Source: a phage. From it: a stretch of DNA of 64,000 bases. The position numbers and the translations under genes were made by a program. Below the pieces are notes generated by a model that was given only the letters and a program-made list of their open reading frames with translations, was not told the DNA's origin and made no database searches. The stretch lies in assembly GCA_011911785.1 (NCBI GenBank), contig GCA_011911785.1_4084.1. One strand, written 5' to 3'. Of the stretch, positions 7,439-38,599 are shown piece by piece; the stretch's first letter is position 1, and every line of letters begins with the position of its first letter.

Positions 7439-7439
7439 A

Positions 7440-8120: not shown

Positions 8121-8166
8121 TATAATATAAGTATTGTCAGTACTGAAAACTATTTTTAAAAAGTAC

Positions 8167-8229: not shown

Positions 8230-8248
8230 AAGAATAAGGAATAAAATC

Positions 8249-8470: not shown

Positions 8471-8473
8471 GTA

Positions 8474-8532
8474 TTGACAAAGTATATCAGTACTGTATAA
8501 TAGTTTACATCAAGGGGAGAATAGTTCTCCCC
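8474..8532 (+). promoter_or_regulatory. sigma70-like promoter plus 5'UTR stem-loop (PeSL-like)
   Basis: TTGACA 8474-8479, AGTACTG-TATAAT 8496-8501, hairpin GGGGAGAAtagTTCTCCCC 8514-8532. Confidence 0.65.
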
Positions 8533-8553
8533 GATACTAAAAGGAATAAAATC

Positions 8554-8961: not shown

Positions 8962-8967
8962 AAGTAT

Positions 8968-9026
8968 TTGACAAAGCATATCAGTACTGTATAATAGTTT
9001 ACATCAAGGGGAGAATAGTTCTCCCC
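8968..9026 (+). promoter_or_regulatory. sigma70-like promoter plus 5'UTR stem-loop (PeSL-like)
   Basis: near-identical copy of cassette at 8474; TTGACA 8968-8973, TATAAT 8990-8995. Confidence 0.65.
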
Positions 9027-9048
9027 ACTACTAAAAGGAAACAAAATT

Positions 9049-9321
9049 ATGTCTAGCTACTCCGCTACTATGATCATCAAAGATATGAACGGTAATCCTA
9101 CTTCCGCTGGTGGATCATTTGGAAACATTAACTTAGATGGTCGGTTATCAATGGAATCAGCCATCAATGCAGCGAAAGAAGTTTTTAAGAATGAATGTAC
9201 TGTAAGCAAGCTGGATTATATGGGCTTCGCTATCGAGAAAACTAAACGTTTTGTGGACTACAAAAATCCACTGATGATTGATACTAACCTGAAAGCTAAC
9301 GAAGTGGAATACTTATTATGA
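9049..9321 (+). CDS. hypothetical protein (90 aa)
   Basis: RBS AAGGAAA upstream. Confidence 0.55.
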   Translation: MSSYSATMIIKDMNGNPTSAGGSFGNINLDGRLSMESAINAAKEVFKNECTVSKLDYMGFAIEKTKRFVDYKNPLMIDTNLKANEVEYLL

Positions 9322-9509
9322 CAGTTGATGAAGTTAAAAAAGTACTGGCAGTACTACGCTATCATAATCATTGTAAGGTTAAGAATGATCCTGATTATGT
9401 TGATTCATCCCTGGAGGAAGACACCTTAAACGCGATAAGCCATATGCAAACATTAGCAAAGCGTATGACCGAAAAGAATAGGCCGGACTATATCGGAAAT
9501 AAAATTTAA
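9318..9509 (+). CDS. hypothetical protein (63 aa)
   Basis: ATGA stop/start overlap with previous ORF. Confidence 0.5.
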   Translation: MTVDEVKKVLAVLRYHNHCKVKNDPDYVDSSLEEDTLNAISHMQTLAKRMTEKNRPDYIGNKI

Positions 9510-9516
9510 AAAGTAC

Positions 9517-9578
9517 TTGCATTGTAGTTAGATTAACGTATAATGTTTTATATCGAGAGGGGGAAATGGTTTCCCCTC
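9517..9578 (+). promoter_or_regulatory. sigma70-like promoter (TTGCAT-N16-TATAAT) plus 5'UTR stem-loop
   Basis: TATAAT 9539-9544; hairpin GAGGGGGAAAtggTTTCCCCTC. Confidence 0.6.
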
Positions 9579-9596
9579 AAGTCCAGGAGATACACC

Positions 9597-9863
9597 ATGA
9601 ACACTATCGAAATCACTATCAATGCTCACGTATACGACAACGTAGTACTGCAAACTACTATGACCGCTAACGATACCAGTACTTTGCGGAATACTGTTAT
9701 AAGTGCTGTATGTGCCGCTATCGGTGATGTATCCCTGGAAAACGCAGAACACATCAATAACGGTTTCACTATGTGCAAACGTGATAACGCAAAACATATC
9801 ATCGTAGAAGGTTACGGCGGTGTAGAATATAATCTTTATATGAAAAAAGTACTTGCATCGTAA
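9597..9863 (+). CDS. hypothetical protein (88 aa)
   Basis: track ORF 9543 trimmed to ATG after RBS AGGAGA. Confidence 0.55.
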   Translation: MNTIEITINAHVYDNVVLQTTMTANDTSTLRNTVISAVCAAIGDVSLENAEHINNGFTMCKRDNAKHIIVEGYGGVEYNLYMKKVLAS

Positions 9864-9909
9864 GTAAAACAAAGTATAATGTTTTGCATAGGGGGAGATA
9901 TCCTCCCCC
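9853..9909 (+). promoter_or_regulatory. sigma70-like promoter (TTGCAT-N16-TATAAT) plus 5'UTR stem-loop
   Basis: TATAAT 9875-9880; hairpin GGGGGAGatatCCTCCCCC. Confidence 0.6.
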
Positions 9910-9928
9910 ACTAATAAGGAGTACTACG

Positions 9929-10153
9929 ATGGCTAATCATGATGAACTGATTCGGGAAGTAGCTAACCTGGCGGCAGAAAAGAAATCATTTGATTCTATC
10001 TATAACACCGCTCACCGTGATTCAGTACTGGCATGTAATCAGGATCAAAAAGATGAACTGATCGCAACCTATCATGAAGCGTGGAAGTATTACCGTCAAT
10101 GGGAGAAAGAAGAAAAAGCATCAACCATAAGAGGATTAAATAATCTAGTATAA
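9929..10153 (+). CDS. hypothetical protein (74 aa)
   Basis: track ORF 9884 trimmed to ATG after RBS AAGGAG. Confidence 0.55.
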   Translation: MANHDELIREVANLAAEKKSFDSIYNTAHRDSVLACNQDQKDELIATYHEAWKYYRQWEKEEKASTIRGLNNLV

Positions 10154-10160
10154 CAATAAA

Positions 10161-10189
10161 AGGGGATGATAATATCCCCTTAATAATTT
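10161..10189 (+). terminator. putative intrinsic terminator
   Basis: stem AGGGGAT/ATCCCCT followed by an A/T-rich tract. Confidence 0.45.
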
Positions 10190-10205
10190 CTATAATAGGT
10201 TAACA

Positions 10206-10472
10206 ATGAAAAAGAAAACAACATATCGCTATAATAAAAATTATCAATCCGTTGTATTAGATCACTCTATGCTCCCGCTCGTTGTCCCTGCCGTTGGTGT
10301 AGTCTATCAATCCATATACTGGTCAAGGAAACAACAAAAGTACTTAAAAGGCCCAATAGCACGCTATGAGGGTAATGGTGTATGGTCCGATCCGTTACAT
10401 CCAATCACTACGCGTTATATTGAATATTTTCCTTATTGTGACTACATTGAAATACATCCTAAATTTAATTGA
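10206..10472 (+). CDS. hypothetical protein (88 aa), paralog of 10553-10810
   Basis: shared motif GNGxWxDPxxP...DYIE with the next ORF. Confidence 0.55.
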   Translation: MKKKTTYRYNKNYQSVVLDHSMLPLVVPAVGVVYQSIYWSRKQQKYLKGPIARYEGNGVWSDPLHPITTRYIEYFPYCDYIEIHPKFN

Positions 10473-10477
10473 TAGTA

Positions 10478-10531
10478 TTGACAGTACTAACTGATAGTGT
10501 ATAATGTTTTGCATAGGGGGAATACTCCCCC
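10478..10531 (+). promoter_or_regulatory. sigma70-like promoter plus 5'UTR stem-loop
   Basis: TTGACA 10478-10483, TATAAT 10500-10505, hairpin GGGGG-aatact-CCCCC. Confidence 0.6.
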
Positions 10532-10552
10532 AATATTAAAAGGGGAAACATC

Positions 10553-10810
10553 ATGGAACAATTCACACAATATCGGGTAAATCCTCAAGCTATGGCCTAC
10601 GTAGAAGACCATAAAACGTTACCAGTACTGCAACCAGTTAAAGGCCGTATCTATCGTGGCCTTGCATGGAATACGGCCCAGGATGGATATAAAACCGTTG
10701 CCGTGGGGATGTATTGCGGTAATGGTGAATGGTTTGATCCAAATAATCCGGTAGCTATTGACAGTACTGAAAAAATGAAATGGGCCGACTATATCGAGGA
10801 TATCTCATAA
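10553..10810 (+). CDS. hypothetical protein (85 aa), paralog of 10206-10472
   Basis: RBS AAGGGGAAA; shared motif CGNGEWFDPNNP. Confidence 0.55.
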   Translation: MEQFTQYRVNPQAMAYVEDHKTLPVLQPVKGRIYRGLAWNTAQDGYKTVAVGMYCGNGEWFDPNNPVAIDSTEKMKWADYIEDIS

Positions 10811-10816
10811 AACTAT

Positions 10817-10877
10817 TTGACAGTACTATCATATAGTGTATAATGTTTTACATAGAGCGGGGGAATAGTTCTCCCGC
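10817..10877 (+). promoter_or_regulatory. sigma70-like promoter plus 5'UTR stem-loop
   Basis: TTGACA 10817-10822, TATAAT 10839-10844, hairpin GCGGGGGAAtagTTCTCCCGC. Confidence 0.6.
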
Positions 10878-10899
10878 CAATAGTTTGGAGTAAAACATT

Positions 10900-11100
10900 A
10901 TGTCAATCGCTAACGAAATGATCGCAGTACTGAAAGAAGCTAAAGCCAACCTGATCGACGTAAAGATCCAGGAACTACAATCCGGCTTAATCGGCTGTAC
11001 TTGTACCGCTGGTGGGGCGACAGATTATCGTGAATTCGAATCACTCGAATCGATGGTTCGGTATCTTACAATGATCGTGGAAGATTGGAAGATCATCTAA
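10900..11100 (+). CDS. hypothetical protein (66 aa)
   Basis: RBS GGAG upstream. Confidence 0.55.
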   Translation: MSIANEMIAVLKEAKANLIDVKIQELQSGLIGCTCTAGGATDYREFESLESMVRYLTMIVEDWKII

Positions 11101-11118
11101 CAAAAAAGAATAAAAAAA

Positions 11119-11196
11119 GGGATTGACTCCGGTCAGTCCCTTTGCTATTATATACGCATAGACAAAAACTAGCCCACAGGGTGCATAAGTGTATCC
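11119..11196 (+). promoter_or_regulatory. repeat copy 4 of 4: terminator hairpin fused to promoter plus conserved leader
   Basis: hairpin GGGATTGAC-tccg-GTCAGTCCC then TTT; TATTAT 11146-11151. Confidence 0.65.
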
Positions 11197-11264
11197 AAAA
11201 TATATAGTTAATAACGGTGAGTAACTATCTGCTGGTGGAGTGAAAACTATTAATAAAAAAAGTA

Positions 11265-11293
11265 TTGACAAAGTATATCAGTACTGCAATAAT
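11265..11293 (+). promoter_or_regulatory. sigma70-like promoter (TTGACA-N17-AATAAT)
   Basis: TTGACA 11265-11270, AGTACTG, weaker -10. Confidence 0.45.
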
Positions 11294-11347
11294 GTATCTC
11301 GTAGGGCGGCAATGGTGCGACGGCCCACAAAGTTAGGAGATTCACAA

Positions 11348-11680
11348 ATGAGTACTTCAATCGCCATCGTTAATGCTTTCATCCGTACCAATGTTTCTTC
11401 TGTATTCATCGACGGACTGGATCGGGAAGTAGAATACTCAATCATTATCGCACAGACTGCAAACGGTGCTCGGTATATCCTCAATGATAGCGAAGCAAAT
11501 CACTACTACTACACTAAAGCTACTGGCTTTAAACGCATCGATGCGGACGTAGTATACGCTAAGATGAATAAGCTGGTAGACAAGATTAACGCTAAAGGTA
11601 CTATCGATTTACAGTACTGGACCGAAACCGATCCAGAATATGGATCTCACCGCTACCTGAATCCAGGTATTAAAATGTAA
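11348..11680 (+). CDS. hypothetical protein (110 aa)
   Basis: track ORF 11240 trimmed to ATG after RBS AGGAGA. Confidence 0.55.
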   Translation: MSTSIAIVNAFIRTNVSSVFIDGLDREVEYSIIIAQTANGARYILNDSEANHYYYTKATGFKRIDADVVYAKMNKLVDKINAKGTIDLQYWTETDPEYGSHRYLNPGIKM

Positions 11681-11687
11681 AAAGTAC

Positions 11688-11749
11688 TTGCATAGTACTT
11701 AGTAAAGTGTATAATGTTTTACATAGAGAGGGGGAAATGGTTCTCCCTC
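11688..11749 (+). promoter_or_regulatory. sigma70-like promoter (TTGCAT-N16-TATAAT) plus 5'UTR stem-loop
   Basis: TATAAT 11710-11715; G-rich hairpin 11728-11749. Confidence 0.6.
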
Positions 11750-11769
11750 CTAAATTAAGGAGTACTACC

Positions 11770-12171
11770 ATGACTTTCTCAATCACTTCCTACGCTGACG
11801 TTTTAGTACTGGCTCGGACTTTTGGTAAAGCTGGCATGGAGTATGCTGTAAACAATGGTCACATGCACCCTGAATATTGCCGCATCATTGGAAGCTGTAA
11901 ACGTTGGGCAACTAACAATACGATTGAACTGGAAAACTTCAATGATGGTAACAATGAATATACTGTTGATGCAGTATTTGAAGCCGTTGATCTCGGCGGT
12001 ATCTATAACACTAACCTGAATGATGTGCGTATCGTTCGCACGGGGTTCGGTGCTTATGATGTATCCATCCGTGAAGCTATGGACACGGGATACATTAGTA
12101 AGGACTTGCTCGCTTACATCATGCAGCAGACTAAGGAGCGTAACGAAGCACGCACTATCTTAGGACTGTAA
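11770..12171 (+). CDS. hypothetical protein (133 aa)
   Basis: track ORF 11707 trimmed to ATG after RBS AAGGAG. Confidence 0.6.
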   Translation: MTFSITSYADVLVLARTFGKAGMEYAVNNGHMHPEYCRIIGSCKRWATNNTIELENFNDGNNEYTVDAVFEAVDLGGIYNTNLNDVRIVRTGFGAYDVSIREAMDTGYISKDLLAYIMQQTKERNEARTILGL

Positions 12172-12195
12172 GCATTACACATCACCAAACATCAT

Positions 12196-12215
12196 AGGCC
12201 GCTCTCTAGCGGCCT
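12196..12215 (+). other. GC-rich hairpin (weak terminator candidate, no T-run)
   Basis: stem AGGCCGCT/AGCGGCCT. Confidence 0.3.
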
Positions 12216-12239
12216 TAACTATATCAGGAGTACACACAC

Positions 12240-12449
12240 ATGATCTATACAGTATACAGCGTTCTAGGTACTATTGCAGGCGTACATGATAACGTCGATG
12301 ATGCTATGCGTACAGTACTGCAACAGGTTCCACTAAAGCCTAAGACTATTAAGCAGATGACAGCACGACTAACCAGGGCAAAGGCTGGCGGTGAAGTCTG
12401 GCAGGACTACGCGGATACGCAGATTATCATTGCAGTAAGTAATGATTAA
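12240..12449 (+). CDS. hypothetical protein (69 aa)
   Basis: RBS AGGAG upstream. Confidence 0.55.
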   Translation: MIYTVYSVLGTIAGVHDNVDDAMRTVLQQVPLKPKTIKQMTARLTRAKAGGEVWQDYADTQIIIAVSND

Positions 12450-12492
12450 TGAATTAAATGATTCAGTACTAAAACTATTAGTCAGAAAATAA

Positions 12493-12527
12493 TCGGTGCA
12501 TTTTAAAAATGCATCGTTTTTTATTTT
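12493..12527 (+). terminator. rho-independent terminator
   Basis: palindrome TGCATTTT-A-AAAATGCA followed by TTTTTT. Confidence 0.6.
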
Positions 12528-12684
12528 AACCAGTACACTATAACGTATGAAATAGTTTCGACCTGTGATTATATTCTTAGGCAACTAGGGGCAGGTAATG
12601 CTTAGCTGCGTGTATAGGGGTTCATAGGTGGGACAAAATTGTTTCGTATGCTACAATCATAACAAATAACATAAGGAGAAACCA

Positions 12685-13107
12685 ATGATTAAATTTAAAG
12701 TTGATTATAATTCTAATATACAAATGGATGCAAATGTTCAATTTCCAAAAAACTTACTAAAAATGTCATTCAGTTATCATATACCATCGAATTCTATGTT
12801 GATTGATTGTGTTAATAAGAATGAAGATGTTATGCGTTCAAGTGTTTATTTCATAAGTGATGATTCTGAAATATTTAACATTGAATATTCAGATTATAAA
12901 GGTCAATTTGTTTTAGATACACCCAGTAACCAATATAAATTCAACATTCTTGATGTATCAAATACAGTAATTAGTTCGTTTGATGTGGGTAATTTATCTG
13001 TTCCACATGACAACGGTGTATCTGGGGATTTATATGAAAACACCATGCCATATACTAAACAAGAAAATATGAGTATTAACGATATATGTAATTATTTGAA
13101 AAAATAA
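12685..13107 (+). CDS. hypothetical protein (140 aa)
   Basis: RBS AAGGAGA upstream; AT-rich composition like the downstream arrays. Confidence 0.6.
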   Translation: MIKFKVDYNSNIQMDANVQFPKNLLKMSFSYHIPSNSMLIDCVNKNEDVMRSSVYFISDDSEIFNIEYSDYKGQFVLDTPSNQYKFNILDVSNTVISSFDVGNLSVPHDNGVSGDLYENTMPYTKQENMSINDICNYLKK

Positions 13108-13114
13108 GTTCTAC

Positions 13115-13143
13115 TTGACATCATGCCTCGTATGGGGTATGAT
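13115..13143 (+). promoter_or_regulatory. sigma70-like promoter (TTGACA-N17-TATGAT) heading the small-protein array
   Basis: TTGACA 13115-13120, TATGAT 13138-13143. Confidence 0.55.
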
Positions 13144-13177
13144 GTTTTTTCATATATGAACCTATGGAATTTGCCCT

Positions 13178-13375
13178 ATGCGTATTTTAACCCAAGAAGA
13201 GCATCACGAAAGACTTATCAATAACATGGCTATGATAATGTATAAGTCACATAAACGTGGTAATGCCTATAAACGTGAATTAGTTATGGAACTATTCTTA
13301 GGAACTAACTTACAAAATGAATATGTTAAACTATATGTAAAAGAGTTATGTTTAGAGATAAATGGTAAACTATGA
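13178..13375 (+). CDS. LGTNYQ-family small protein (65 aa)
   Basis: motif FLGTNLQNEYV; first array member. Confidence 0.6.
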   Translation: MRILTQEEHHERLINNMAMIMYKSHKRGNAYKRELVMELFLGTNLQNEYVKLYVKELCLEINGKL

Positions 13376-13572
13376 AAATGCGTACATTAACTCAAGATGA
13401 ATATCATCATATACTACGTAAAAACACGGCAAGGATTTACCAAAGCAATGTGCACTTAGAAAGAGTTGAGTTGTACCTTTTGATTACGATGGGAACAAAC
13501 TATCAGGAAGTGTGGATAACTCACTATTTGGAATCTTTGAAAGCTGACATACGAGCGAGGTGCAAACATTGA
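13372..13572 (+). CDS. LGTNYQ-family small protein (66 aa)
   Basis: motif TMGTNYQEVWI; ATGA overlap. Confidence 0.6.
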   Translation: MKMRTLTQDEYHHILRKNTARIYQSNVHLERVELYLLITMGTNYQEVWITHYLESLKADIRARCKH

Positions 13573-13778
13573 AAATCATAACACAGACACAAGCATTTGG
13601 TCGTATATTGAAATACCTTGATGACATGATAGATATACATAGTGACCTCCCTAAAACTGTAATCGACGCCAAAAGAGCAGAATATCGCATGATGGCTGTA
13701 CTGGACACAAACTTTCAGGAAGAGTATGTCAATGATTGGATTGGATTTTTAATTGAAGATATAAAGAGTAAACTATGA
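13569..13778 (+). CDS. LGTNYQ-family small protein (about 69 aa), probable TTG start
   Basis: motif VLDTNFQEEYV; RBS GAGG 9 nt upstream of TTG overlapping the previous stop (TTGA). Confidence 0.5.
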   Translation: MKIITQTQAFGRILKYLDDMIDIHSDLPKTVIDAKRAEYRMMAVLDTNFQEEYVNDWIGFLIEDIKSKL

Positions 13779-13987
13779 TTATATTAACACCAGAGCAATA
13801 TAGGAAACGTTACAATTCTAAGCAGATTGAAATCTTGCTGATATATGCAGACAGGGATGATGTATACTTATCAAAAGTTATGGAAAAAGAATTACTTATG
13901 GGTGTCTTCTTAGGAACTGACCACCAGAAATCTTATGTCCAAGAGTATCTAATAGCTCTTGAGAAATACATCAGGAGTAAACTATGA
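13775..13987 (+). CDS. LGTNYQ-family small protein (70 aa)
   Basis: motif FLGTDHQKSYV; ATGA overlap. Confidence 0.6.
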   Translation: MIILTPEQYRKRYNSKQIEILLIYADRDDVYLSKVMEKELLMGVFLGTDHQKSYVQEYLIALEKYIRSKL

Positions 13988-14208
13988 ACTGCATTAATAA
14001 CTTTGAATACGAGGCTCGCTCAAGGTGTGCATCTCAAAAAGAGAACCACATTTACTTCACTATGATGTACTTATCTTGGAATGAAATTGAAGAAATGGTT
14101 GCTGAAGTATGGCTGTTTGAATTCATGGGGACGCAGTATCAGAATAGGTTTGTGGGTGAGTATCTTAATGTTCTTATGAAACATATAGAAAGAAAGGGAA
14201 TGAACTAA
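13984..14208 (+). CDS. LGTNYQ-family small protein (74 aa)
   Basis: motif FMGTQYQNRFV; ATGA overlap. Confidence 0.6.
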   Translation: MNCINNFEYEARSRCASQKENHIYFTMMYLSWNEIEEMVAEVWLFEFMGTQYQNRFVGEYLNVLMKHIERKGMN

Positions 14209-14459
14209 TGAAAGTATTATCAAGCACTGAGTATCAATCTGCCCTATTCTCTCTTATCAATACCCTTCGCAAGAACAATGAACTTTATCCTTCCCCTGAG
14301 AATGATGTAGTTAATGGTGACGTGTTTCTACTTAAATTCGTTGGGACTAATAAACAAGTTATCTTCACTGATCGTTATATCAATGCACTAAGAAACCTTG
14401 TAGCGTATAAAACCCGCCAGGCCAAAAGAGAATGGAAGAGACAATGCGATCCAGAATAA
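14208..14459 (+). CDS. LGTNYQ-family small protein (83 aa)
   Basis: motif FVGTNKQVIF; TAATG overlap. Confidence 0.6.
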   Translation: MKVLSSTEYQSALFSLINTLRKNNELYPSPENDVVNGDVFLLKFVGTNKQVIFTDRYINALRNLVAYKTRQAKREWKRQCDPE

Positions 14460-14692
14460 ATCACATCATGTACGTTAAACTATTTCAGAAACTAATCCAC
14501 AAACACTATGATACAGTATCTGATAAACTCACTAATGATATCAGCAGACTTATTCACTGTGAAGCAGAGATGCTTGTACTGATGACGGGAGACGATACAC
14601 AAACAATCGCTAAGGCAATAGAGAACTATCTGGAAGCATATCAACAACATATAAGAACGGAAGTCTGGAGACGAGAGAATGAAAATCCTTAG
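14432..14692 (+). CDS. divergent LGTNYQ-family small protein (86 aa)
   Basis: degenerate motif LMTGDDTQTI; start may be ATG 14444. Confidence 0.5.
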   Translation: MEETMRSRINHIMYVKLFQKLIHKHYDTVSDKLTNDISRLIHCEAEMLVLMTGDDTQTIAKAIENYLEAYQQHIRTEVWRRENENP

Positions 14693-14894
14693 TGGGTATG
14701 AATATTACAGGCTGTTGCGAACTATACAAGCAAAAGTTTCTAGTATTTCTTTAAACAAATCTATTGCACAAGTGGACAAATGTGTTATAATAACTGAAAT
14801 GAAGCTATCTATCTTCATTGGGACAAACTATCAAAGCATCTACACTGACGCATGGTTAGCAAGTCTACGTAACAAGGTGATATCCAGAGAATGA
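14679..14894 (+). CDS. LGTNYQ-family small protein (71 aa)
   Basis: motif FIGTNYQSIY. Confidence 0.6.
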   Translation: MKILSGYEYYRLLRTIQAKVSSISLNKSIAQVDKCVIITEMKLSIFIGTNYQSIYTDAWLASLRNKVISRE

Positions 14895-15109
14895 AAAATT
14901 TACAAGGTTTTGAATATATTAAGCTTCTGCAAACCTGTGAAATCCAAAGAAGAAAGATTCAAAAGGCTAAAAGAATTACCGCAGAACGAAAGTTTACACT
15001 GATAACTGAAGTCTATGTAGAGGCACTCTTAGGCACAAACTATCAACAAACGTATATAGACCTATGGATCGATGCACTCCAGAAAGAGGTTAAAAGTAAA
15101 TGCAAATGA
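14891..15109 (+). CDS. LGTNYQ-family small protein (72 aa)
   Basis: motif LLGTNYQQTY; ATGA overlap. Confidence 0.6.
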   Translation: MKNLQGFEYIKLLQTCEIQRRKIQKAKRITAERKFTLITEVYVEALLGTNYQQTYIDLWIDALQKEVKSKCK

Positions 15110-15324
15110 TTAATTTAAGTAAAGATGAATATTATGTACGTCTTGCAAAAACTTATTCATTACGCAAGGCCATTTATGAAAGTCACATTATTGAACAATC
15201 AAATAAGTGGATTGTAGTAAATGAGATCAAGATGCTTTCAGTCTTAGGAACAAACTATCAAGCGAGTGCTGTACTGAAGGTCATTAATGCACTTCAAAAT
15301 GAGGTCCAAAGTAAATGCAAATGA
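15100..15324 (+). CDS. LGTNYQ-family small protein (74 aa)
   Basis: motif VLGTNYQASA; conserved junction AAATGCAAATGA. Confidence 0.6.
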   Translation: MQMINLSKDEYYVRLAKTYSLRKAIYESHIIEQSNKWIVVNEIKMLSVLGTNYQASAVLKVINALQNEVQSKCK

Positions 15325-15578
15325 TTAATTTAAGTCAAGATGAATATAACGAGCGACTTGCAAAAATCTCACCTAAACGTAATGCAATCTATCACAGCCA
15401 AGAAATTCAACACAGTAAGAAGATGATTATGTTTCGTGAGTTAAAGATGGGTGTCTTCTTAGGAACAAACTATCAAGAGACAGAAGTAAATCGCGTCATA
15501 ACCGAGTTACTCATGGAAATCAGAGGTAAGCTGTACTTTCATCAAATGACCCAACCACTGAGGTGTAATGAGAAATGA
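15315..15578 (+). CDS. LGTNYQ-family small protein (87 aa)
   Basis: motif FLGTNYQETE; same junction as 15100. Confidence 0.6.
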   Translation: MQMINLSQDEYNERLAKISPKRNAIYHSQEIQHSKKMIMFRELKMGVFLGTNYQETEVNRVITELLMEIRGKLYFHQMTQPLRCNEK

Positions 15579-15811
15579 ATAAAATTAATAACATCAACTT
15601 AGCAGAAAGATTTGATAGAATTGGGGAAGCTCTGAGAAGATACGATAAAGCATATGGTCATTTAAGCTTTACCATAGAAACGAGATATGCCCTTGAAGAA
15701 GAGTTTAAAATGCATAGTCTCTTAGGCACACAGTATCAAAATCAATATGTTCAAAATTGGATTGAACTTTTAATCCAAACAATTCATGTGAGGAACATAA
15801 AATGCAAATGA
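15575..15811 (+). CDS. LGTNYQ-family small protein (78 aa)
   Basis: motif LLGTQYQNQY; ATGA overlap. Confidence 0.6.
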   Translation: MNKINNINLAERFDRIGEALRRYDKAYGHLSFTIETRYALEEEFKMHSLLGTQYQNQYVQNWIELLIQTIHVRNIKCK

Positions 15812-16056
15812 TATACTTAACAGACGATGAAATAAAAGAAAGAATAATTAAATCCAGAAAACATACAAATCAACTTCCAAAAGACCCAAATCAAACCCCT
15901 GCTGAAAGGAGTGCAGAAGTATTATATCAACAACTCCTGTACTTTCTTGGGACTGATAGACAGGATTATTATGTTCGATCGATTCTTAGATATCTTAAAA
16001 TGACTATTCAGGAAAAGATACATGACCAAATATATAAAAATCTTAACAGTCAATGA
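15802..16056 (+). CDS. LGTNYQ-family small protein (84 aa)
   Basis: motif FLGTDRQDYY. Confidence 0.6.
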   Translation: MQMIYLTDDEIKERIIKSRKHTNQLPKDPNQTPAERSAEVLYQQLLYFLGTDRQDYYVRSILRYLKMTIQEKIHDQIYKNLNSQ

Positions 16057-16279
16057 ATATCATAAGATTATCATGAAGACTAATATTGAGAATTCTAAAA
16101 AATCAAATACCAAGTACATTCTGGAACACACATTTGAAGAACGACAATTAGCTTTAGTTGAAGCAAAACTTCTTGCACTATTAGGGACTAACTATCAAGA
16201 CGAGTACGTAAGAAAACTAATATACCTTTTAACTAAACATATAAGAAAAAGAAAAGCACATGAAACACTTGACAGATGA
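16022..16279 (+). CDS. LGTNYQ-family small protein (85 aa)
   Basis: motif LLGTNYQDEY. Confidence 0.55.
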   Translation: MTKYIKILTVNEYHKIIMKTNIENSKKSNTKYILEHTFEERQLALVEAKLLALLGTNYQDEYVRKLIYLLTKHIRKRKAHETLDR

Positions 16280-16490
16280 CGAATACGGTGTTATCATCCT
16301 TGATGTTATCAATAAAGAATACCATAGGAAACAACGATACGCTTGTTATGAAGATAAACAGCTTTCTATAGCTGAACAACAATTAGTTCATTTATTAGGA
16401 ACAAACTATCAAGAACAATGCACTGAACGTTACCTGTATCTACTGTCGAGGAAAGCAAAAAGAGATTATGAAAATTTTAAACGAAGGTGA
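16260..16490 (+). CDS. LGTNYQ-family small protein (76 aa)
   Basis: motif LLGTNYQEQC. Confidence 0.6.
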   Translation: MKHLTDDEYGVIILDVINKEYHRKQRYACYEDKQLSIAEQQLVHLLGTNYQEQCTERYLYLLSRKAKRDYENFKRR

Positions 16491-16683
16491 TGAAGTAATA
16501 TTACTTATAGAGAATTCAAGTAAATTCTTAAACATATCACTGTCTGATATAGATGAAGATGACAAAGAAGTACTGAGAGCAGATTTAAGAGTACTGTTAC
16601 ATCTCGGAACAAACCTACAAGAGCAATTCGTTGAGGACTACATCGATGAACTTAAAGAATCAGTACTGAGAAGATGCAAATGA
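16468..16683 (+). CDS. LGTNYQ-family small protein (71 aa)
   Basis: motif HLGTNLQEQF. Confidence 0.6.
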   Translation: MKILNEGDEVILLIENSSKFLNISLSDIDEDDKEVLRADLRVLLHLGTNLQEQFVEDYIDELKESVLRRCK

Positions 16684-16925
16684 AAATCCTTTCACCAAGT
16701 GAATACCACGAACTATTAAGTAGTTTAATTCCAAAGTTACATCGTAGCTGGTCAGCAGAATTATCACAGGATGAAAAAAATATTCTAATAAGTGAAATCT
16801 ATGTTCTAGCTACTATAGGAACTAACTATCAAGAACACATCATCGTGGATTATATTAATACACTTCAAAGGTCTATCCAATGCAAATGCGAATCATTACC
16901 GGAGAAGAATACCGAACAATCATAA
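16674..16925 (+). CDS. LGTNYQ-family small protein (83 aa), C-terminally extended
   Basis: motif TIGTNYQEHI; the usual KCK-stop junction has lost its stop, giving a 13-codon read-through tail. Confidence 0.55.
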   Translation: MQMKILSPSEYHELLSSLIPKLHRSWSAELSQDEKNILISEIYVLATIGTNYQEHIIVDYINTLQRSIQCKCESLPEKNTEQS

Positions 16926-17122
16926 ATGGACTGTTTTTGAAGTTATTTGCCATTAACACATCAAAACTACCAGACACGGATAAAATTATTAAGTTAAATG
17001 AAATCTACGTTCAAGCAACTCTAGGAACTAACTATCAAGAAGCCAATGTTTATAATTACATTAATACACTTAAAAGGGTAATACAATTAAAATGCACAGA
17101 CAGCACATACACAAACCCCTAG
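16880..17122 (+). CDS. LGTNYQ-family small protein (80 aa)
   Basis: motif TLGTNYQEAN. Confidence 0.55.
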   Translation: MQMRIITGEEYRTIINGLFLKLFAINTSKLPDTDKIIKLNEIYVQATLGTNYQEANVYNYINTLKRVIQLKCTDSTYTNP

Positions 17123-17322
17123 GAACAGCAGAATACCTTGAACTAATGGCAGCAAACTTCTCATCCTTTCAGAAACTGATGCAAGAATCAAATAATGATT
17201 TAGAATATCATATCAAAAGTTCAGATTTAAGATTGTTACTCACTCTAGGAACAGACAGTCAGTACCAATTCGTACAGGAGCATATTAGAGCACTTTTAAA
17301 TGGCATCAGGAATAAACTATGA
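17092..17322 (+). CDS. LGTNYQ-family small protein (76 aa)
   Basis: motif TLGTDSQYQF. Confidence 0.55.
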   Translation: MHRQHIHKPLGTAEYLELMAANFSSFQKLMQESNNDLEYHIKSSDLRLLLTLGTDSQYQFVQEHIRALLNGIRNKL

Positions 17323-17534
17323 AGACAATATCTAATCAAGAGTACTTAGAACTATTCAGAAAGAATAATCACAAATTTTTAGTACTTGATACAAGAACTG
17401 ATATAGGGGAACTTGAAAAAAATCTTTTGCGTTCAGAGATGATAGTACTGACACTCTTAGGAACACAGCACCAAGAGAGAACTGTTAATTCACACATAGG
17501 GATTCTTATACAGATAGTACAGGAAAAGATATGA
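17319..17534 (+). CDS. LGTNYQ-family small protein (71 aa)
   Basis: motif LLGTQHQERT; ATGA overlap. Confidence 0.6.
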   Translation: MKTISNQEYLELFRKNNHKFLVLDTRTDIGELEKNLLRSEMIVLTLLGTQHQERTVNSHIGILIQIVQEKI

Positions 17535-17752
17535 GAATCATAACACAACAAGATATTCTTAAGTTCACAAGGGTTCATGCATCTGAATTTGATGCTATAT
17601 TATCAAAAAGTTACAACAACCCTTATACAGAAGATGTACACTACAGTGAATTATGGGTGTATATACTTTTAGATACAAATTATCAAGAGCAAGCAGTACA
17701 GAAGTATTTGACAGCTTTAAGTACTGCTATTGCTAATGGAATAGGTGTTTAA
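17531..17752 (+). CDS. LGTNYQ-family small protein (73 aa)
   Basis: motif LLDTNYQEQA; ATGA overlap. Confidence 0.6.
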   Translation: MRIITQQDILKFTRVHASEFDAILSKSYNNPYTEDVHYSELWVYILLDTNYQEQAVQKYLTALSTAIANGIGV

Positions 17753-17754
17753 AA

Positions 17755-18096
17755 ATGAAAACTAATATTCAACTTAAGGTTTATAAATCATTTGCAAGTA
17801 CATATATCAAATGCAGTCTATGTAAAGATGTAATGGACTACAAAGGTAAGCCATTCACGATTACTTACGATTCTACAAGAGGTTTTTATATATCTTTTGC
17901 TGATTACAAATATAACATGTACGAACACATTGACATTAAAGATTTAAGTACTTTATCTGAAGAAGAATACTTTCAAGAATCATTAGTATGGGATTTAGAG
18001 TTTCCTATGCCATTGGTACATAAGATGATAGTACTAATAAAAGAAACTAAACAGGAGCCTAATAGTGCTTATGAAGAACACATTATTGAGTACTGA
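17755..18096 (+). CDS. FQxS-motif family protein (113 aa)
   Basis: motif EEEYFQESLVWD. Confidence 0.65.
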   Translation: MKTNIQLKVYKSFASTYIKCSLCKDVMDYKGKPFTITYDSTRGFYISFADYKYNMYEHIDIKDLSTLSEEEYFQESLVWDLEFPMPLVHKMIVLIKETKQEPNSAYEEHIIEY

Positions 18097-18099
18097 ACC

Positions 18100-18330
18100 A
18101 TGAAAAGATTATCATTCGAAGAGTACTGCAAGCTTATTAATACTTTACAACCACAAATAAAACAAATAAATTCTCTTCCTATATCCCAAGAAGAACGTGC
18201 AGTACTGAAAGATGAGTTAATTTTAAAATGCACAGTAGGTACTAACTATCAAGCTGATAGTGTTCGTTATCTAATTTGGGGTTTAATGTGCATAATAGAG
18301 AACAAAGCAGTTGACAGTACTCTAATGTAG
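18100..18330 (+). CDS. LGTNYQ-family small protein (76 aa)
   Basis: motif TVGTNYQADS. Confidence 0.6.
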   Translation: MKRLSFEEYCKLINTLQPQIKQINSLPISQEERAVLKDELILKCTVGTNYQADSVRYLIWGLMCIIENKAVDSTLM

Positions 18331-22308: not shown

Positions 22309-22338
22309 TTGACACAGTACAGAATCGGTGCTAATATA
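22309..22338 (+). promoter_or_regulatory. sigma70-like promoter (TTGACA-N18-TAATAT)
   Basis: TTGACA 22309-22314, TAATAT 22333-22338; preceded by a T-run. Confidence 0.5.
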
Positions 22339-22362
22339 CCTGAACATTTTTAAGGAGAACCC

Positions 22363-22897
22363 CATGCAAACATCGCAAAAATCGCAAGTACAGAAAGCAA
22401 TGTCATTCAATGAAATTGGTGCATTTAAAGATAAGATTATTGATTGTATTGAATACGCGATTTGTAGTAATATCAAAAGTATAGAGGTATTTAACAAGTC
22501 AAATCGCTCTTACCATATGATGTACATTGCAAACAATAATGGTATCATTCCATTTGTTTCGGATAGTACAATATGGTTCGCTTGCGATGTGAAAAAATAC
22601 ACAATAGGTTCATATGTCTTCGGTAAACATGGTGATCTAATTATTCCTGAGCATTGTATGCAAGAAGAAGAATATTTTCAAAAGCAATGTGTACATGAAC
22701 CATTAGAGATGGTTGCTTTATATATGATACCTTATATCTCTAAATGTGTTCATGAGAATAAAGCTCCGTGGAATCATGAATTTGTATCGTTGAAGTTATT
22801 GTATAATGTTTTAGTACAATATTATGATTACAGACACGAGGGTACAATCAGCGATGTATGGGATTTCGAAAATTTAAGGGTAAAAACATATGAATAA
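22363..22897 (+). CDS. FQxS-motif family protein (178 aa)
   Basis: track ORF 22328 trimmed to ATG after RBS AAGGAGA; motif EEEYFQKQCVHE. Confidence 0.65.
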
Positions 22898-23580: not shown

Positions 23581-24117
23581 ATGATCCAGCACAAACATTT
23601 TGAGTACGAGTTCGCTGACAATTTAGTAAAAATCGTACAGGCGTTTGAGGCTGGGGATTTTGACCACATCTATCCTAAGCACAAGGAAGGATGGCTTGAG
23701 CCTAAGAGCGATATTGAAAAGTATCCATCTATTGTGTATTACAGGAGAGATACGGTAATGCACGCTGTAGGTGAGAAGATGCAGTTAGAGTATTGTCTTT
23801 TGTTCAATGCTATTACATCGGCTACATCAGCATCTGAAGAGTTCGCTCCAGTGAATTGGATTCGTTATTTGGATATGAGCAAGAGAGAGGAAGAAACCTT
23901 TTTTGGTTTAACAAAGCACGTTGATATTGCAACCTTGAATCCTAACATCCTGAGTCCTGAAGAATATTTTCAGGAGTCCTTAGTACAAGATCCTTATATT
24001 TTACAGGTGCAGCAAGTATATAATGTATTACGTGCTAATGTGAAAACGAATTTCTTTTTAGCTTTAACGTGGTACGATAGGTTAGTAAAAGATCTCAAAG
24101 AGATTAAGGGGGAGTAA
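23581..24117 (+). CDS. FQxS-motif family protein (178 aa)
   Basis: motif PEEYFQESLVQD; RBS GGGAG. Confidence 0.65.
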   Translation: MIQHKHFEYEFADNLVKIVQAFEAGDFDHIYPKHKEGWLEPKSDIEKYPSIVYYRRDTVMHAVGEKMQLEYCLLFNAITSATSASEEFAPVNWIRYLDMSKREEETFFGLTKHVDIATLNPNILSPEEYFQESLVQDPYILQVQQVYNVLRANVKTNFFLALTWYDRLVKDLKEIKGE

Positions 24118-25608: not shown

Positions 25609-25934
25609 TGAATACTAAAATATATGTTTCTTCAAGTACAATGGGAAGTGGTTTTACTTATACGTGCTTTTTTACTACATTGAATAAAACACCTATATTG
25701 ATTATTCGTGATTTCAATGAATGTAATATAGAGTACGTATCCAAAACAGATAAGCTTCCTAATTACATCGAATGCGAATACATGGAGAACTATGAAAGTT
25801 TTATATTTCAGGAATCATTAGTATGGGATAAAGAAATCGATTTCTTTATGTACCTTGCATTACAAAAGTACTACAGAGATAACAAGGACCAAATAGTTCG
25901 TTCTTGCATTTATTCTATTAATCTGGAGTACTGA
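25608..25934 (+). CDS. FQxS-motif family protein (108 aa)
   Basis: motif ESFIFQESLVWD. Confidence 0.65.
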   Translation: MNTKIYVSSSTMGSGFTYTCFFTTLNKTPILIIRDFNECNIEYVSKTDKLPNYIECEYMENYESFIFQESLVWDKEIDFFMYLALQKYYRDNKDQIVRSCIYSINLEY

Positions 25935-26104
25935 TGCTTAAAAAAGAACAAATGGAATCATTAATGAATGCAGTTATTCGTCGTTTTGTTAAAGACATTA
26001 GTCATAAAAACTGTATTACAAATGACAGGTACGGTATAGAATTGTATATAGCTAATATTCACATGGCGTACAGAGAATATATTAAGACACGTCACAGGGG
26101 TTGA
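25934..26104 (+). CDS. hypothetical small protein (56 aa)
   Basis: below track cutoff; coupled start; ends in the duplicated junction CACAGGGGTTGAAATG. Confidence 0.35.
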   Translation: MLKKEQMESLMNAVIRRFVKDISHKNCITNDRYGIELYIANIHMAYREYIKTRHRG

Positions 26105-26105
26105 A

Positions 26106-26588
26106 ATGAGTTTAGAAAGTGCATTGAAAGAAGCAAAGAAGATTCATGAGTACATGAATATGGCAAAAGAAGGTTCAGTTTACGGTATTTTCAAAGACAC
26201 AAGTACTCAATATTATGTCTCTGATAACCTCATTGATAATGACTTCCCAGATACAGAAACGTGCGTACTAGATACCGACCCTAATGATTATGAATGTTTC
26301 ATTGATATGCATAATGAGTACATGGTCTATGTTAATGATGGAGATATTACCATCTACAGTACTGTCCACGATACCGATGACATTATAATTCCGTGTGCAG
26401 TACTGGAAGGTCCGTGGGATAGTGAAGAGTATTACTTCCAACAAAGTACTGTATACAATGAAGAAGAACTTGATTGTATTGTAATTATGTGGTACTTTAA
26501 AAGTATTGGTTCTGAGAACTTCTATTTCGATTACAGATACGTAAAGAAAACTGTAGATAACGGTATTAATAAACTTCACAGGGGTTGA
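26106..26588 (+). CDS. FQxS-motif family protein (160 aa), one of three recent paralogs
   Basis: motif EEYYFQQSTVYN; N-terminus MSLESALKEAKKIHEYM shared with 27033. Confidence 0.7.
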   Translation: MSLESALKEAKKIHEYMNMAKEGSVYGIFKDTSTQYYVSDNLIDNDFPDTETCVLDTDPNDYECFIDMHNEYMVYVNDGDITIYSTVHDTDDIIIPCAVLEGPWDSEEYYFQQSTVYNEEELDCIVIMWYFKSIGSENFYFDYRYVKKTVDNGINKLHRG

Positions 26589-26589
26589 A

Positions 26590-27033
26590 ATGAGTTTAGA
26601 AAGAGCACTAGAACTAGCCAACAAAATACATCACTTCCACGATAACATAAAAAGTGGGTTCTATGGTGATAAAGTAAGTGCATTTGGTAATGAGTATTAT
26701 CTATCAGGTATAAAGACATACTCTGCTGATATTTTACTTATGGGTCATGATAAAGACAATACTATACAGTACTCTTCATGTAGTCAATATACTAGTTTTA
26801 TGGTATATATTCCAGGTACTAAGATTACTTTTGACACATCAAATTCACCTGTTGACTTCGGGGTACTTGATGGCCCGTGGGGTACTGAAGAGTATTACTT
26901 CCAACAGAGTCTCATTTTTAACCAAGAAATGCTTGATTCCTTGGTTGTGTTGTGGTACTTTAAGGAATTGAATTTTGAACCATTCTTTCTTGACTGGGGA
27001 GCATGTGAATATTTAAGTACAGGGGATTTGTAA
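26590..27033 (+). CDS. FQxS-motif family protein (147 aa), recent paralog
   Basis: motif EEYYFQQSLIFN; N-terminus MSLERALELANKIH. Confidence 0.7.
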   Translation: MSLERALELANKIHHFHDNIKSGFYGDKVSAFGNEYYLSGIKTYSADILLMGHDKDNTIQYSSCSQYTSFMVYIPGTKITFDTSNSPVDFGVLDGPWGTEEYYFQQSLIFNQEMLDSLVVLWYFKELNFEPFFLDWGACEYLSTGDL

Positions 27034-27488
27034 TGTCGTTACAAAGTGCATTGAAAGAAGCAAAGAAGATTCATGAGTACATGATTAAGGTCAAAGGTGG
27101 AGAAATTCCAGGTATCTTCAAAATGTCAGAGACTGAATATTGCACGAAGAATATTGAGGATTTTGATGGTTCTGATACATTAGTACTGCAATGTGATGAT
27201 TATGATCATGATAATTGTGGTTATAACCCTTTGTACTACTTTATCAATTACTACCCAGGGTCAGATATAACCGTATACAACCCTGATTATTATGCTAAAG
27301 ATTTGACAATTCCGTTTTCAGTACTGGATGGTCCGTGGGATAGTGAAGAGTATTACTTTCAGCAAAGTACTGTATATACTGAACATGAACTCGATACTCT
27401 GGTCATTATGTGGTACTTTAAAAGTATAGATTCAACATGTTTCTATATGGATTATGAATACATAGAGACACAGAAATATAAGAGGTAA
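27033..27488 (+). CDS. FQxS-motif family protein (151 aa), recent paralog
   Basis: motif EEYYFQQSTVYT; N-terminus MSLQSALKEAKKIHEYM. Confidence 0.7.
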   Translation: MSLQSALKEAKKIHEYMIKVKGGEIPGIFKMSETEYCTKNIEDFDGSDTLVLQCDDYDHDNCGYNPLYYFINYYPGSDITVYNPDYYAKDLTIPFSVLDGPWDSEEYYFQQSTVYTEHELDTLVIMWYFKSIDSTCFYMDYEYIETQKYKR

Positions 27489-27493
27489 TTGTA

Positions 27494-27940
27494 ATGTTTT
27501 TTTATTATTATGAAGTAAATGATAAGTTGGTTCAGGATATTGTACAAATAATCAAGTACTTCAATGATAATCCTAAAGTATTGGGTAGTGAACTTGAATA
27601 CGAGAAAGGTGGGTGTGTATATTTTACTTTCTGCGGTGGGTGCTCTGATGAGCAATCATTTTTCAATTCTTATTCAAATTACATCTCCTATAATGCACTT
27701 GCAGACGAGTTGATTGTGGTACGTGACAGTAGTGATGACCGTACAGTGTATACCAGAGAGACAATACAAAGTGTAGGTAATGAAGAAGGATACTTTCAAT
27801 TGAGTACAGTACTTAATCATGAAGAACTACATGTATTACGTTTGTTTTATCTTATTAGTACTATGAACTTGAAGCACGATCAGGTATACATTGATTTAGA
27901 TTACTTTGAGTACTTACGTAAGATTAGTTCTAAAAAATAA
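27494..27940 (+). CDS. FQxS-motif family protein (148 aa)
   Basis: motif EEGYFQLSTVLN. Confidence 0.65.
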   Translation: MFFYYYEVNDKLVQDIVQIIKYFNDNPKVLGSELEYEKGGCVYFTFCGGCSDEQSFFNSYSNYISYNALADELIVVRDSSDDRTVYTRETIQSVGNEEGYFQLSTVLNHEELHVLRLFYLISTMNLKHDQVYIDLDYFEYLRKISSKK

Positions 27941-36641: not shown

Positions 36642-37190
36642 ATGGATAGCATTGTAAATATTATTGAATGCATGATTTATATTTTTAAAAACAGTCCTGA
36701 TAATAAGACTGTTAATTTTGAGTTAGGTGAATTAAATATCAACCCAAAAGAATCTCCATCAGTATATTCTAATATTACATTGTTCATTAGTGGTTTAGGT
36801 TATGTCGTAAAGATCATTAATGCAACACAACGTAGACAAGAATACAAGATGGAAATTCTACGCGGAGATAGTGAAATTCGTCTATATAATGTATCACGCT
36901 ACACTAAGATACTGGTAAAACATTCTTATGAAGATGACGAGAAGTTAGCTGTAGCTAAAATTGATTCAAACACTTTCAAAGAACAAATGTTCATGGCTGC
37001 TATGTCATATGATCAATTAACTTATAATAAGCTAGAAATGGGTTATAAATTACTTAGGTTATTAGAAGATCATTATGAAATTACAATTATGGACAAATTG
37101 CTTACCAAAAGCCAAGAGGAACTAGAGAAAATGCATTTGTTATTAAAAAAATATATTGATGATAATTTAAATTATGGAGAAGTACGTTGA
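36642..37190 (+). CDS. divergent FQxS-family-like protein (182 aa)
   Basis: degenerate motif [12 protein letters not shown]. Confidence 0.55.
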
Positions 37191-38599
37191 AAAGTAATTT
37201 AGAAAATATACGCAAAAAAGCCGATAATTTAGTACTATGTTGTATAGGGGCTTTATTTGCTGTTACTTTAGTTTCCGGTGTTGTTCATGGTAGTTTTATT
37301 ATTGCACTAATCGGTGCAGTTTTATTATTAGTAATGCTAACTCCTTTACTATTTGTTGAAAGTAATGCGTTCACTCGAACGTTGTTAAGTATAAATGTGA
37401 TGTGCTGGAGTGCGTTACTAATACATCTTGGCTTAGGGATGGTGGAATGGCACTTTACAGTTTTTGTCTTTTTAAGTTTATTGATTGTATGGCGTGACTG
37501 GCGTTGTGTATTAGCAGGTTCAGTACTGATTGCTATACATCATTTATTATTTGGATTGTTACAGGGTGCTGGAATTCCAATATTATTCGTGTTTTCTTTT
37601 CACCATATTTCGTTATGGCACATTATAGAGCACGCAATATATGTAGTAGTACAGGCAATAGTTCTGATGTACGTAGCGTACATTATGGAGAAAGATGCAA
37701 ATGAAGCAGATGAAATTCAACGAATTGCAAGATCAGTGAATTCTGAAGACGGCAATATTACTTTAGAAATACAAAATAATCATTTCAACTCCGAATTTGC
37801 ACAGACTTTTAGTAAAACAATATCAGCTATGCGTGAGGCAATTGAACAAGTACAAATTACAGTTCAGTCAATGAAAAGCAACTCCTATCATCTCGAAAGT
37901 AAAAGTAATGATTTAGCTTTCAGAACTGAAACACAAGGACAGGCACTTACTCAAATCGCTGCTGCTATGGAAGAATTAAGTGCTACATCTGCAAATACAT
38001 CTGATAACTCCAATACTGCAAAAAGTATGGTTAAAACTACAAAAGAATCCAGTACTAATGCAATTGAAAGTATCAATAATTGCAAAGAGCAGATGGATAG
38101 AATTAAAGAAGATTCTAATGCTATAGTTGCTATACTCAAAAATATAGAAACTATTGCTTTCCAGACTAATATTCTTTCTTTAAATGCCAGTATTGAAGCT
38201 GCTAAAGCTGGTGAACATGGTCGTGGATTCTCTGTTGTTGCACAGGAAGTTCGTAACTTAGCAATGAAATGTGATGCATGTAGTAAAGAAATTAAAGAAA
38301 TCGTTGATAACTCCGTAAAAAACAACAACCAAGGAATAGAACAAATCAACGAAACTGCAAGTGATATTGATTCTATTGTAAAAAATGTTGATTCACTCTT
38401 GCAGTTCATTGATGATTTAGCTATAATGGCTGAACAACAAAGCATTGCAATCCTTCAGGTTACCGAGAGTGTTAATATGATGGACCGTTCAGTACAGCAA
38501 AATGCGGAGCATGTAAAGGACACAATGATGATGGTAGACAATCAACAGTCTGAAGTACATGCTTTACAAAAAGCCACTTCGATTTTTAACGTGAAATAA
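37187..38599 (+). CDS. methyl-accepting chemotaxis protein (MCP)-like membrane transducer (470 aa)
   Basis: multiple N-terminal TM helices; C-terminal MCP signalling domain with core [35 protein letters not shown]; TTG start with TTGA overlap, RBS GGAGA. Confidence 0.8.

Follow-up and report, generated by a model that had tools for sequence, protein, structure and literature searches.

How do the long tandem gene arrays of a giant phage lose and reshape their members? The question is raised by a 64,000-nucleotide stretch of phage DNA (GenBank assembly GCA_011911785.1, contig GCA_011911785.1_4084.1; this whole stretch is called the window here). A preliminary description of its sequence had noticed three adjacent genes with near-identical N-termini and short strings recurring at gene junctions, and had read them as traces of very recent duplication and of unequal recombination or gene conversion that uses the conserved junctions as homology. 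The recombination part of that reading stands, and the 'very recent duplication' does not. We consider it likely that the array genes are lost or hybridised by recombination at short conserved gene junctions. The repeats, the unit-length insertions and deletions (indels), their joints, the mosaic genes and the range of copy numbers were all observed directly by comparing the window with related genomes.

By identity and synteny with recognised members (megablast), the window phage is an Asteriusvirus, one of the giant 121Q/PBECO4-like jumbo coliphages of E. coli. Its nearest record is Escherichia phage A4 (ON286972), at ~97.5-99% nucleotide identity, which is colinear with the window over ~60.7 kb in blocks of 91-99.5% identity; beyond A4, 33 records match the window at 80-90% identity (megablast). 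Every sizeable open reading frame (ORF) is on the + strand, the G+C content is 30-40%, and no tRNA gene was found in the 64 kb. The window is an early-side region of the Asteriusvirus genome, filled with old tandem arrays of paralogs. Three paralogous families are present, all in head-to-tail order on the + strand for the first two. Family A consists of proteins of ~70 aa with four helices and an LGTNYQ motif; it has 24 members in the window, in an uninterrupted array plus a few outliers. Family B proteins have 110-210 aa and a core E-E-x-(Y/L)-F-Q-x-S-(L/T)-V in which F-Q is invariant; an iterated hidden Markov model (HMM) search found at least 37 members between 17755 and 45596. The third family has proteins of ~90 aa.

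The three adjacent genes with similar starts belong to family B and are called g1, g2 and g3. The features on which the argument rests in this family are as follows.

22328..22897, + strand: single family B gene where A4 has A4_345 and A4_346, with the joint at the ribosome-binding sequence TTTTTAAGGAGAAC
25934..26104, + strand: small ORF of 56 aa (…HRG-stop), whose homologue lies directly upstream of the 371-type gene in the relatives WPEC3 and fEgEco12
26093..26119, + strand: first copy of a 27-mer, spanning the 3' end of the small ORF, a Shine-Dalgarno-like AGGGG and the first 14 nt of g1
26106..26588, + strand: g1, 370 type, with a mosaic 5' end by ortholog and paralog alignments
26116..26157, + strand: 42-nt exact repeat, also at 27043-27084, in the N-terminal helix codons of g1 and g3
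26577..26603, + strand: second copy of the 27-mer, a deletion scar in which the g1/371 junction is joined to a 372-type body, with the crossover in ATGAGTTTAGAAAGAGCA (26590-26607)
26590..27033, + strand: g2, 372 type, whose first 45 nt are 121Q-like and lie beside the deletion joint
27033..27488, + strand: g3, 373 type by sequence comparison

The three genes of the window correspond to four in A4 and 121Q. The extra A4 gene, A4_355, is of the 121Q_371 type, measures 471 bp and lies between the positions of g1 and g2 (window gap 26588/26590). This 371-type gene is full-length and single-copy in 34/34 related records and is missing in the window phage alone, where its remnant is limited to the first 23 nt (26590-26612). 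The A4 junction between g1 and this gene reads …cacaggggttgaaATGAGTTTAGAAAGAGCATTAGAG…; in the window the same string leads straight into a 372-type body, with …ATGAGTTTAGAAAGAGCA followed directly by CTAGAACTAGCC…. Because the gene is found in all 34 relatives and just 23 nt of it are left here, the window lineage must have deleted exactly one unit (467 bp), by a crossover in the ~18 nt common to the starts of the neighbouring paralogs. An exact search of the IMG/VR viral contigs for the deletion joint gave no match. Next to the joint, g2 has six differences from A4 in its first 45 nt and one in the next 396, the remainder of the gene being 99.7% A4-like, and those first 45 nt match 121Q at 43/45 positions. 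A partner with a 121Q-type start, which would have offered a longer homology (22/25 nt), may have taken part in the deletion.

The 5' end of g1 is mosaic too. Its first 27 nt agree with five orthologs at 20/27 positions, the rest of the gene being ~92% identical, and they open a patchwork of three paralog types: nt 1-14 equal the 371 type (14/14), nt 10-52 equal a WPEC3-type 373 gene (43/43) and the rest is of the 370 type. The 27-mer CACAGGGGTTGAAATGAGTTTAGAAAG, which had been placed at 26090 and 26575, does occur exactly twice, at 26093-26119 and 26577-26603; no match is expected by chance, and the maximal repeat is 28 nt long. The junction at its first copy also precedes the 371-type gene in other phages. 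In WPEC3 and fEgEco12 the 371-type gene directly follows the small ORF that stands before g1 in the window; this first copy is therefore an 'x/371' junction re-used before another gene. The similarity of the three N-termini was as quoted in the preliminary description, and between g1 and g3 it extends to synonymous codons, which are identical at 13/14 sites in the N-terminus, 12/22 in mid-gene and 25/32 in the core. More generally, window-A4 differences are 1.5-fold denser near gene starts than elsewhere (2.56% vs 1.70%), and 12 of the 21 densest clusters of differences lie within -30..+46 of a gene start.

Further joints come from the small-protein array of family A, with these features.

13178..18330, + strand: family A array, ~22 head-to-tail genes with no intergenic DNA
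15093..15120, + strand: 28-nt exact junction repeat (SKCK-stop plus start codon), also at 15308-15335; its 12-mer also at 15800-15811 and, with one mismatch, at 16672-16683
16674..16925, + strand: unit Q, with TGC instead of TGA at the Q/R stop (16886-16888), a state kept in four relatives
16854..16865, + strand: Q/R crossover zone of A4, ATTAATACACTT, the same string being present at 17060-17071
16880..17122, + strand: unit R, which in A4 has its 5' part deleted and its 3' end fused to Q

The KCK-stop 12-mer AAATGCAAATGA had been listed as recurring four times. It is exact at 15098, 15313 and 15800, and the copy at 16672 carries one mismatch (AGATGCAAATGA, encoding RCK-stop). With one mismatch allowed there are seven matches vs 1.33 expected, and 0/100 shuffles reached seven. 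Two junctions had been described as having lost their stop, and we find the same: TGC replaces TGA within 16877-16888, and 17089-17100 reads AAATGCACAGAC. The upstream ORFs are therefore extended by 40 and 31 nt, respectively. Among the 22 junctions of the array, 12 are ATGA overlaps, eight are longer overlaps of 13-40 nt due to frame changes or lost stops upstream, one is a single-base overlap and one has a 2-nt spacer; the last junction listed for the family has a 3-nt spacer and follows an interposed family B gene (17755-18096).

The clearest hybrid gene lies at units Q and R. Both units are present in ELP22, PBECO4, WPEC5 and BF17, and they are adjacent in 17 records. A4 has one gene instead, A4_331, whose sequence is that of window Q as far as ATTAATACACT and that of window R beyond; a single switch is favoured by 101/101 informative sites. 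In ~13 records this place is taken by one unit of 195-220 nt, whose differing lengths suggest several independent events of the Q/R type. In 121Q, unit Q is absent and the joint lies inside ATGCAAATGCAAATGA, which is the KCK-stop motif plus 6 nt. A4 has a different 6-nt duplication at the P/Q junction, AAATGAAAATGA. This junction exists in three length states (window 16672-16690; L009 ~7560-7585; L013 ~6450-6475), namely AGATGCAAATGA in the window, AGATGTAAATGAAAATGA in A4 (+6) and AGATGCAAATGCAAATGA in 121Q (+6, with Q deleted). From their sequences, the three states indicate slippage in an internally repetitive AAATGN AAATGA motif.

Comparison of copy number and order across related genomes, a check proposed in the preliminary description, gave 24 family A copies in the window, 23 in A4, 25 in 121Q and 29, 29, 31 and 31 in the others, with gene order conserved. 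Indels of unit length amount to 206, 215, 219, 239 and 269 bp in family A and to 467 and ~513 bp in family B; those of 206-269 bp occur between relatives with overlapping homology. Four three-way alignments are clean, and in each the switch coincides with the ATGA junction, in an …AAATG(N)AAATGA… string for three and at CATGA for one. Nine crossovers were called automatically. Support was poor for three of the calls (78/95, 82/110 and 78/109 informative sites), which were not counted as called; the Q deletion of 121Q (78/109) was afterwards resolved by eye and is one of the six joints counted, and a call at 95/118 apparently repeats an event for which another call has better support. Of the six resolved family A joints, with the A4 fusion and the 121Q deletion included, five are at ATGA junctions, within ~20 nt of a start codon. 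As this zone makes up ~18% of a unit, a rough binomial estimate gives P ~0.001, in which some events may be non-independent. The unit-length joints between close relatives map onto the listed motifs. Together with the head-to-tail paralogs, the unit-length steps in copy number, the joints and the hybrid genes are what a tandem array evolving by unequal recombination displays.

It had been argued that the recombination reading would fall if a self-comparison revealed no higher identity at junctions than in gene bodies. Identity is elevated at the junctions. Among g1, g2 and g3 nucleotide identity is bimodal, with 80-100% at the 5' junction, 20-50% in mid-gene and 83-97% in the GPW…EEYYFQQS core. 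Over nine genomes, paralogs are 70% identical in the first 30 nt vs 36-44% in the gene body. The junction is not the sole conserved spot: conservation is as high or higher in the FQ core (85%) and the LGTNYQ motif. Exact repeats of at least 12 nt in family A are confined to the junction and the LGTNYQ codons, and those of at least 20 nt in family B (30 kb) to the g1-g3 cluster and one FQESLVWD subfamily.

How old are the arrays? Near-identical copies, which very recent duplication or a gene accordion would leave side by side, are absent from the 64 kb: the best paralog DNA pairs reach 72-81% over 100-200 nt, and the best off-diagonal matches in the arrays 72-81% over at most 200 nt. Protein identity between paralogs is 17-50% in family A and 12-51% in family B. 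By comparison, g1, g2 and g3 have one-to-one orthologs of 92-99% identity. Those of g2 and g3 are present in 8/8 relatives examined and that of g1 in six, being absent from WPEC3 and fEgEco12. ELP22, PBECO4, WPEC5 and BF17 have the stop-less Q/R and R/S junctions in identical form, and these junctions must therefore be old. Because orthologs are one-to-one, paralogs are diverged and the stop-less junctions are conserved, the arrays must predate the genus. The paralogs do not evolve in concert either, as orthologs are ~90% identical along the whole gene vs 36-85% for paralogs, and paralog-derived sequence is found only in short 5' patches. Where a direction can be assigned, the events are deletions or fusions, namely the loss of the 371-type gene here and, in A4, the fusion of Q and R, both of which are present in 17 relatives.

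These observations suggest how the arrays may change. Each start overlaps or follows the previous stop (ATGA), and the last codons of one gene, the re-initiation or ribosome-binding context and the first codons of the next together form one short string. The overlapping stops and starts, nearly without spacers, have the structure of a translationally coupled chain, and the arrays look like a set of long chains of this kind. The string would stay alike from unit to unit because of such coupling, of conserved terminal helices (the first helix being MKILSxxEY or MSLxxALxxAKKIH) and of the tails at the C-terminus (…SKL, …KCK). The junction strings and one or two intragenic motifs are the longest stretches of identical DNA that neighbouring units share, and crossovers would land there because of that, steered by the length of identity rather than by a dedicated site. 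We argue that misaligned, in-register recombination, homologous or by short homology, between neighbouring units or co-infecting relatives would resolve at these strings. The outcomes observed are the loss or gain of whole genes (the window phage lost the 371-type gene and is without A4_345, and 121Q lost unit Q inside ATGCAAATG), in-frame chimeras such as the A4 Q/R fusion, short converted patches at the 5' ends of genes (g1, g2) and 6-nt slippage of the AAATGNAAATGA motif.

Could the strings recur simply because they are needed, for stop/start overlap, re-initiation context and terminal helices, with no part in recombination? That 12/22 junctions are ATGA overlaps would fit, as would the constancy of the stop-less junctions and of the N-terminal 25-40 nt common to the 370 and 373 types among genomes ~8-15% diverged; moreover, identity of the KCK-stop 12-mer is only mildly unlikely given amino-acid identity (~0.17 per pair, an estimate). 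As the sole explanation, function is contradicted by the deletion and insertion joints and the 6-nt slippage, which sit exactly in the junction strings. It also leaves aside that the first 27 nt of g1 differ from the orthologs at 7/27 positions yet equal paralogs exactly, and that g1 and g3 share synonymous codons at the N-terminus far more than in mid-gene. Pure functional constraint is therefore improbable in our view. Fresh tandem duplication, in which the three genes and the KCK units are barely diverged copies, could draw on the exact runs of 27-42 nt and on the 51% protein identity of g1 and g3, the closest pair in the array. It is highly unlikely, since the genus-wide orthologs refute it, the whole-gene nucleotide identity of g1, g2 and g3 is 52-64%, and the polarised events are losses.

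The joints might instead have been made by the assembly, tandem paralogs being a classic cause of collapsed assemblies: repeat collapse would have dropped the 371-type gene or built the chimera. We regard this as extremely unlikely, given that the 371-type gene is only ~70-75% identical to its neighbours in short stretches, too little for collapse, that the joint keeps the frame, is clean and has 99% A4-like sequence on either side, and that the A4 chimera comes from another genome, published independently. In place of misalignment within a single genome, co-infecting Asteriusviruses might have exchanged DNA; the junctions would then be the identity still shared by diverged genomes. The 121Q-like patch in an otherwise A4-like g2 is of this kind, as is the small ORF upstream of g1, which has the WPEC3/fEgEco12 context before a g1 that is itself of the 121Q/PBECO4 type, and window-A4 identity varies by block from 91% to 99.5%. 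Equal exchange, however, leaves copy number unchanged, and the indels and the Q/R chimera need unequal pairing whatever the partner. As the source of the joints and patches, exchange of this kind is possible, though we think it rather less than probable.

Recombination at the gene junctions is thus the reading that we prefer, and several points weigh against it. The resolved events are few (six in family A, two or three in family B), and some are perhaps one event inherited by several genomes. Selection alone could yield the enrichment at junctions with no mechanistic bias, if clean removals of whole genes survive more often. The well-resolved Q/R joint of A4 sits 50 nt inside the gene, off the junction. 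Insertion and deletion are indistinguishable for the indels that lack an outgroup, and a direction given to them would be presumptive. Unequal crossover within a genome is likewise inseparable from exchange between co-infecting phages, and the 121Q-like patch of g2 points to the latter. Finally, translational coupling at the junctions is deduced from sequence rather than from expression.

The events described here are base-pair-resolution cases of turnover in the blocks of unknown-function genes of jumbo phages. Genes are dropped and hybrids made at boundary identities of 4-19 nt, over the timescale that separates strains 1-2% apart. For annotation, it follows that many 'different' genes are chimeras. 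Starts of the 'MQM' type are probably miscalled: as the PHROG profile and the family consensus alignment begin at the second ATG, which lies in the ATGA overlap, this is probably the true start. With regard to dispensability, the window phage does without a gene that all 34 relatives have. As for the growth of jumbo genomes by duplication, the changes now under way look like those of an ancient array that is losing and shuffling genes, not growing.

The array proteins themselves offer few clues to function. Ten of them had no Pfam match, and their matches in PHROGs are to unknown-function families only (9317, 12674, 4148 and others). Their predicted structures are confident, and the only proteins related to them in structure come from RaK2-like jumbo phages and are themselves uncharacterised. 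A family A protein (window 15106-15321; 25 paralogs) is predicted as a four-helix protein of 72 aa with a pLDDT (predicted local distance difference test) of 96.8, and its structural matches are non-specific helical ones. We considered the FQ-S core as a 3C/TEV protease site and dropped this idea, which had no supporting evidence. The A4 ortholog of window 23581-24117, A4_348, is labelled 'DNA ligase'; PHROG matches and the iterated HMM assign it to family B, and the label looks doubtful. Amid the family B array, the 470-aa ORF at 37187-38599 corresponds to A4_379, a 'methyl-accepting chemotaxis protein', which is odd for a phage. The third family is found in tandem at 54032-56115, 57355-57633 and 62703-63796 (PHROG 32291 and 21004), again with overlapping stop/start joins.

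Promoters are distributed unevenly along the window. A sigma-70-like site with an 11/12 match (13115-13143) lies directly upstream of the family A array, and other sites, with a match at 11 or all of the 12 positions, are dispersed over 13.2-33 kb (e.g. 18311, 22309, 27951 and 31510). The first part of the window (1-13200) has thirteen perfect TTGACA-16/17-TATAAT promoters, all intergenic, on the + strand and in repeated cassettes of 60-200 nt (e.g. 2048, 2631, 2968, 3395, 4016, 4976, 5315, 5585, 6016, 8474, 8968, 10478 and 10817). A conserved stem-loop, AAAGGGATTGACTCCGGTCAGTCCCTTT, occurs at 1293, 4725, 8036 and 11116 and bears a -35-like TTGACT in its stem. By sequence, these cassettes resemble the promoter and stem-loop (PeSL) cassettes of T4-type phages. 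An indel relative to A4 (825-894) is flanked by a 70-nt repeat, and cassette differences from A4 fall within 3658-4031, 10147-10537 and 12673-13113. There the window has an extra gene (3686-4009), an extra paralog with its own terminator and promoter (10206-10472) and a 140-aa gene (12685-13107) where A4 has an unrelated 819-bp gene. Two inserts are found only in A4, one of 657 bp with a putative HNH endonuclease (A4_397, A4_398) and one of 658 bp (A4_405), at places corresponding to window 47613-47630 and 51742-51778; they are likely presence/absence differences of mobile genes.

How do these arrays compare with known systems? In the unequal crossing-over and birth-and-death evolution of tandem families, in-register misalignment leads to unit-length gain or loss and to hybrid genes. 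The outcomes here are the same, and the process is closer to short-homology recombination: the array units are only 17-50% identical in protein, and crossovers are therefore confined to identities of 4-19 nt. Poxvirus gene accordions reportedly amplify identical copies rapidly under acute selection. Accordions and the present arrays both change the copy number of a viral family through recombination of tandem copies, but identical copies are absent here.

The arrays of the 121Q genus were read by Hua et al. 2017 (mBio, PMC5646251) as tandem duplications that helped enlarge jumbo genomes, a remark repeated in the phAPEC6 paper (PMC7247149). These are the same genus and the same arrays, treated in a few passing sentences; in the passages of the two papers that our search covered, we found no account of junction anatomy, copy-number comparison, deletion joints or chimeras. 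Unlike the duplications of the 2017 reading, as far as those passages set it out, the events resolvable here are losses, fusions and short patches.

The closest likeness is to the shuffling of PeSLs in T4-type phages, whose boundary sequences are described as recombination sites and the source of many indels and replacements among close relatives (Arbiol et al. 2010, PMC2839356; Comeau et al. 2014, PMC4122927). In both cases short conserved sequences at gene boundaries are the sites of recombination. PeSLs are intergenic cassettes, whereas the boundaries in our arrays are coding stop/start overlaps of paralogs with no intergenic DNA; a sigma-70 promoter plus stem-loop was not found at the indel boundaries in the arrays, and 13.2-33 kb holds one perfect promoter. 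One may speculate that the junction AAATGNAAATGA, a 6-nt tandem repeat, is a selected, built-in hotspot of recombination and slippage, the arrays being a cassette system that makes copy-number variants and in-frame chimeras of a fast-evolving family, possibly host-interfering or counter-defence, as a coding analogue of PeSLs; we find this doubtful. The mechanism is an ordinary one, and none that is new is revealed: this is a well-documented new instance of a process known in kind from unequal crossover, from PeSL-like shuffling and from the 121Q array noted in 2017. What is distinct here is that the boundary sequence is the coding stop/start overlap between paralogs.

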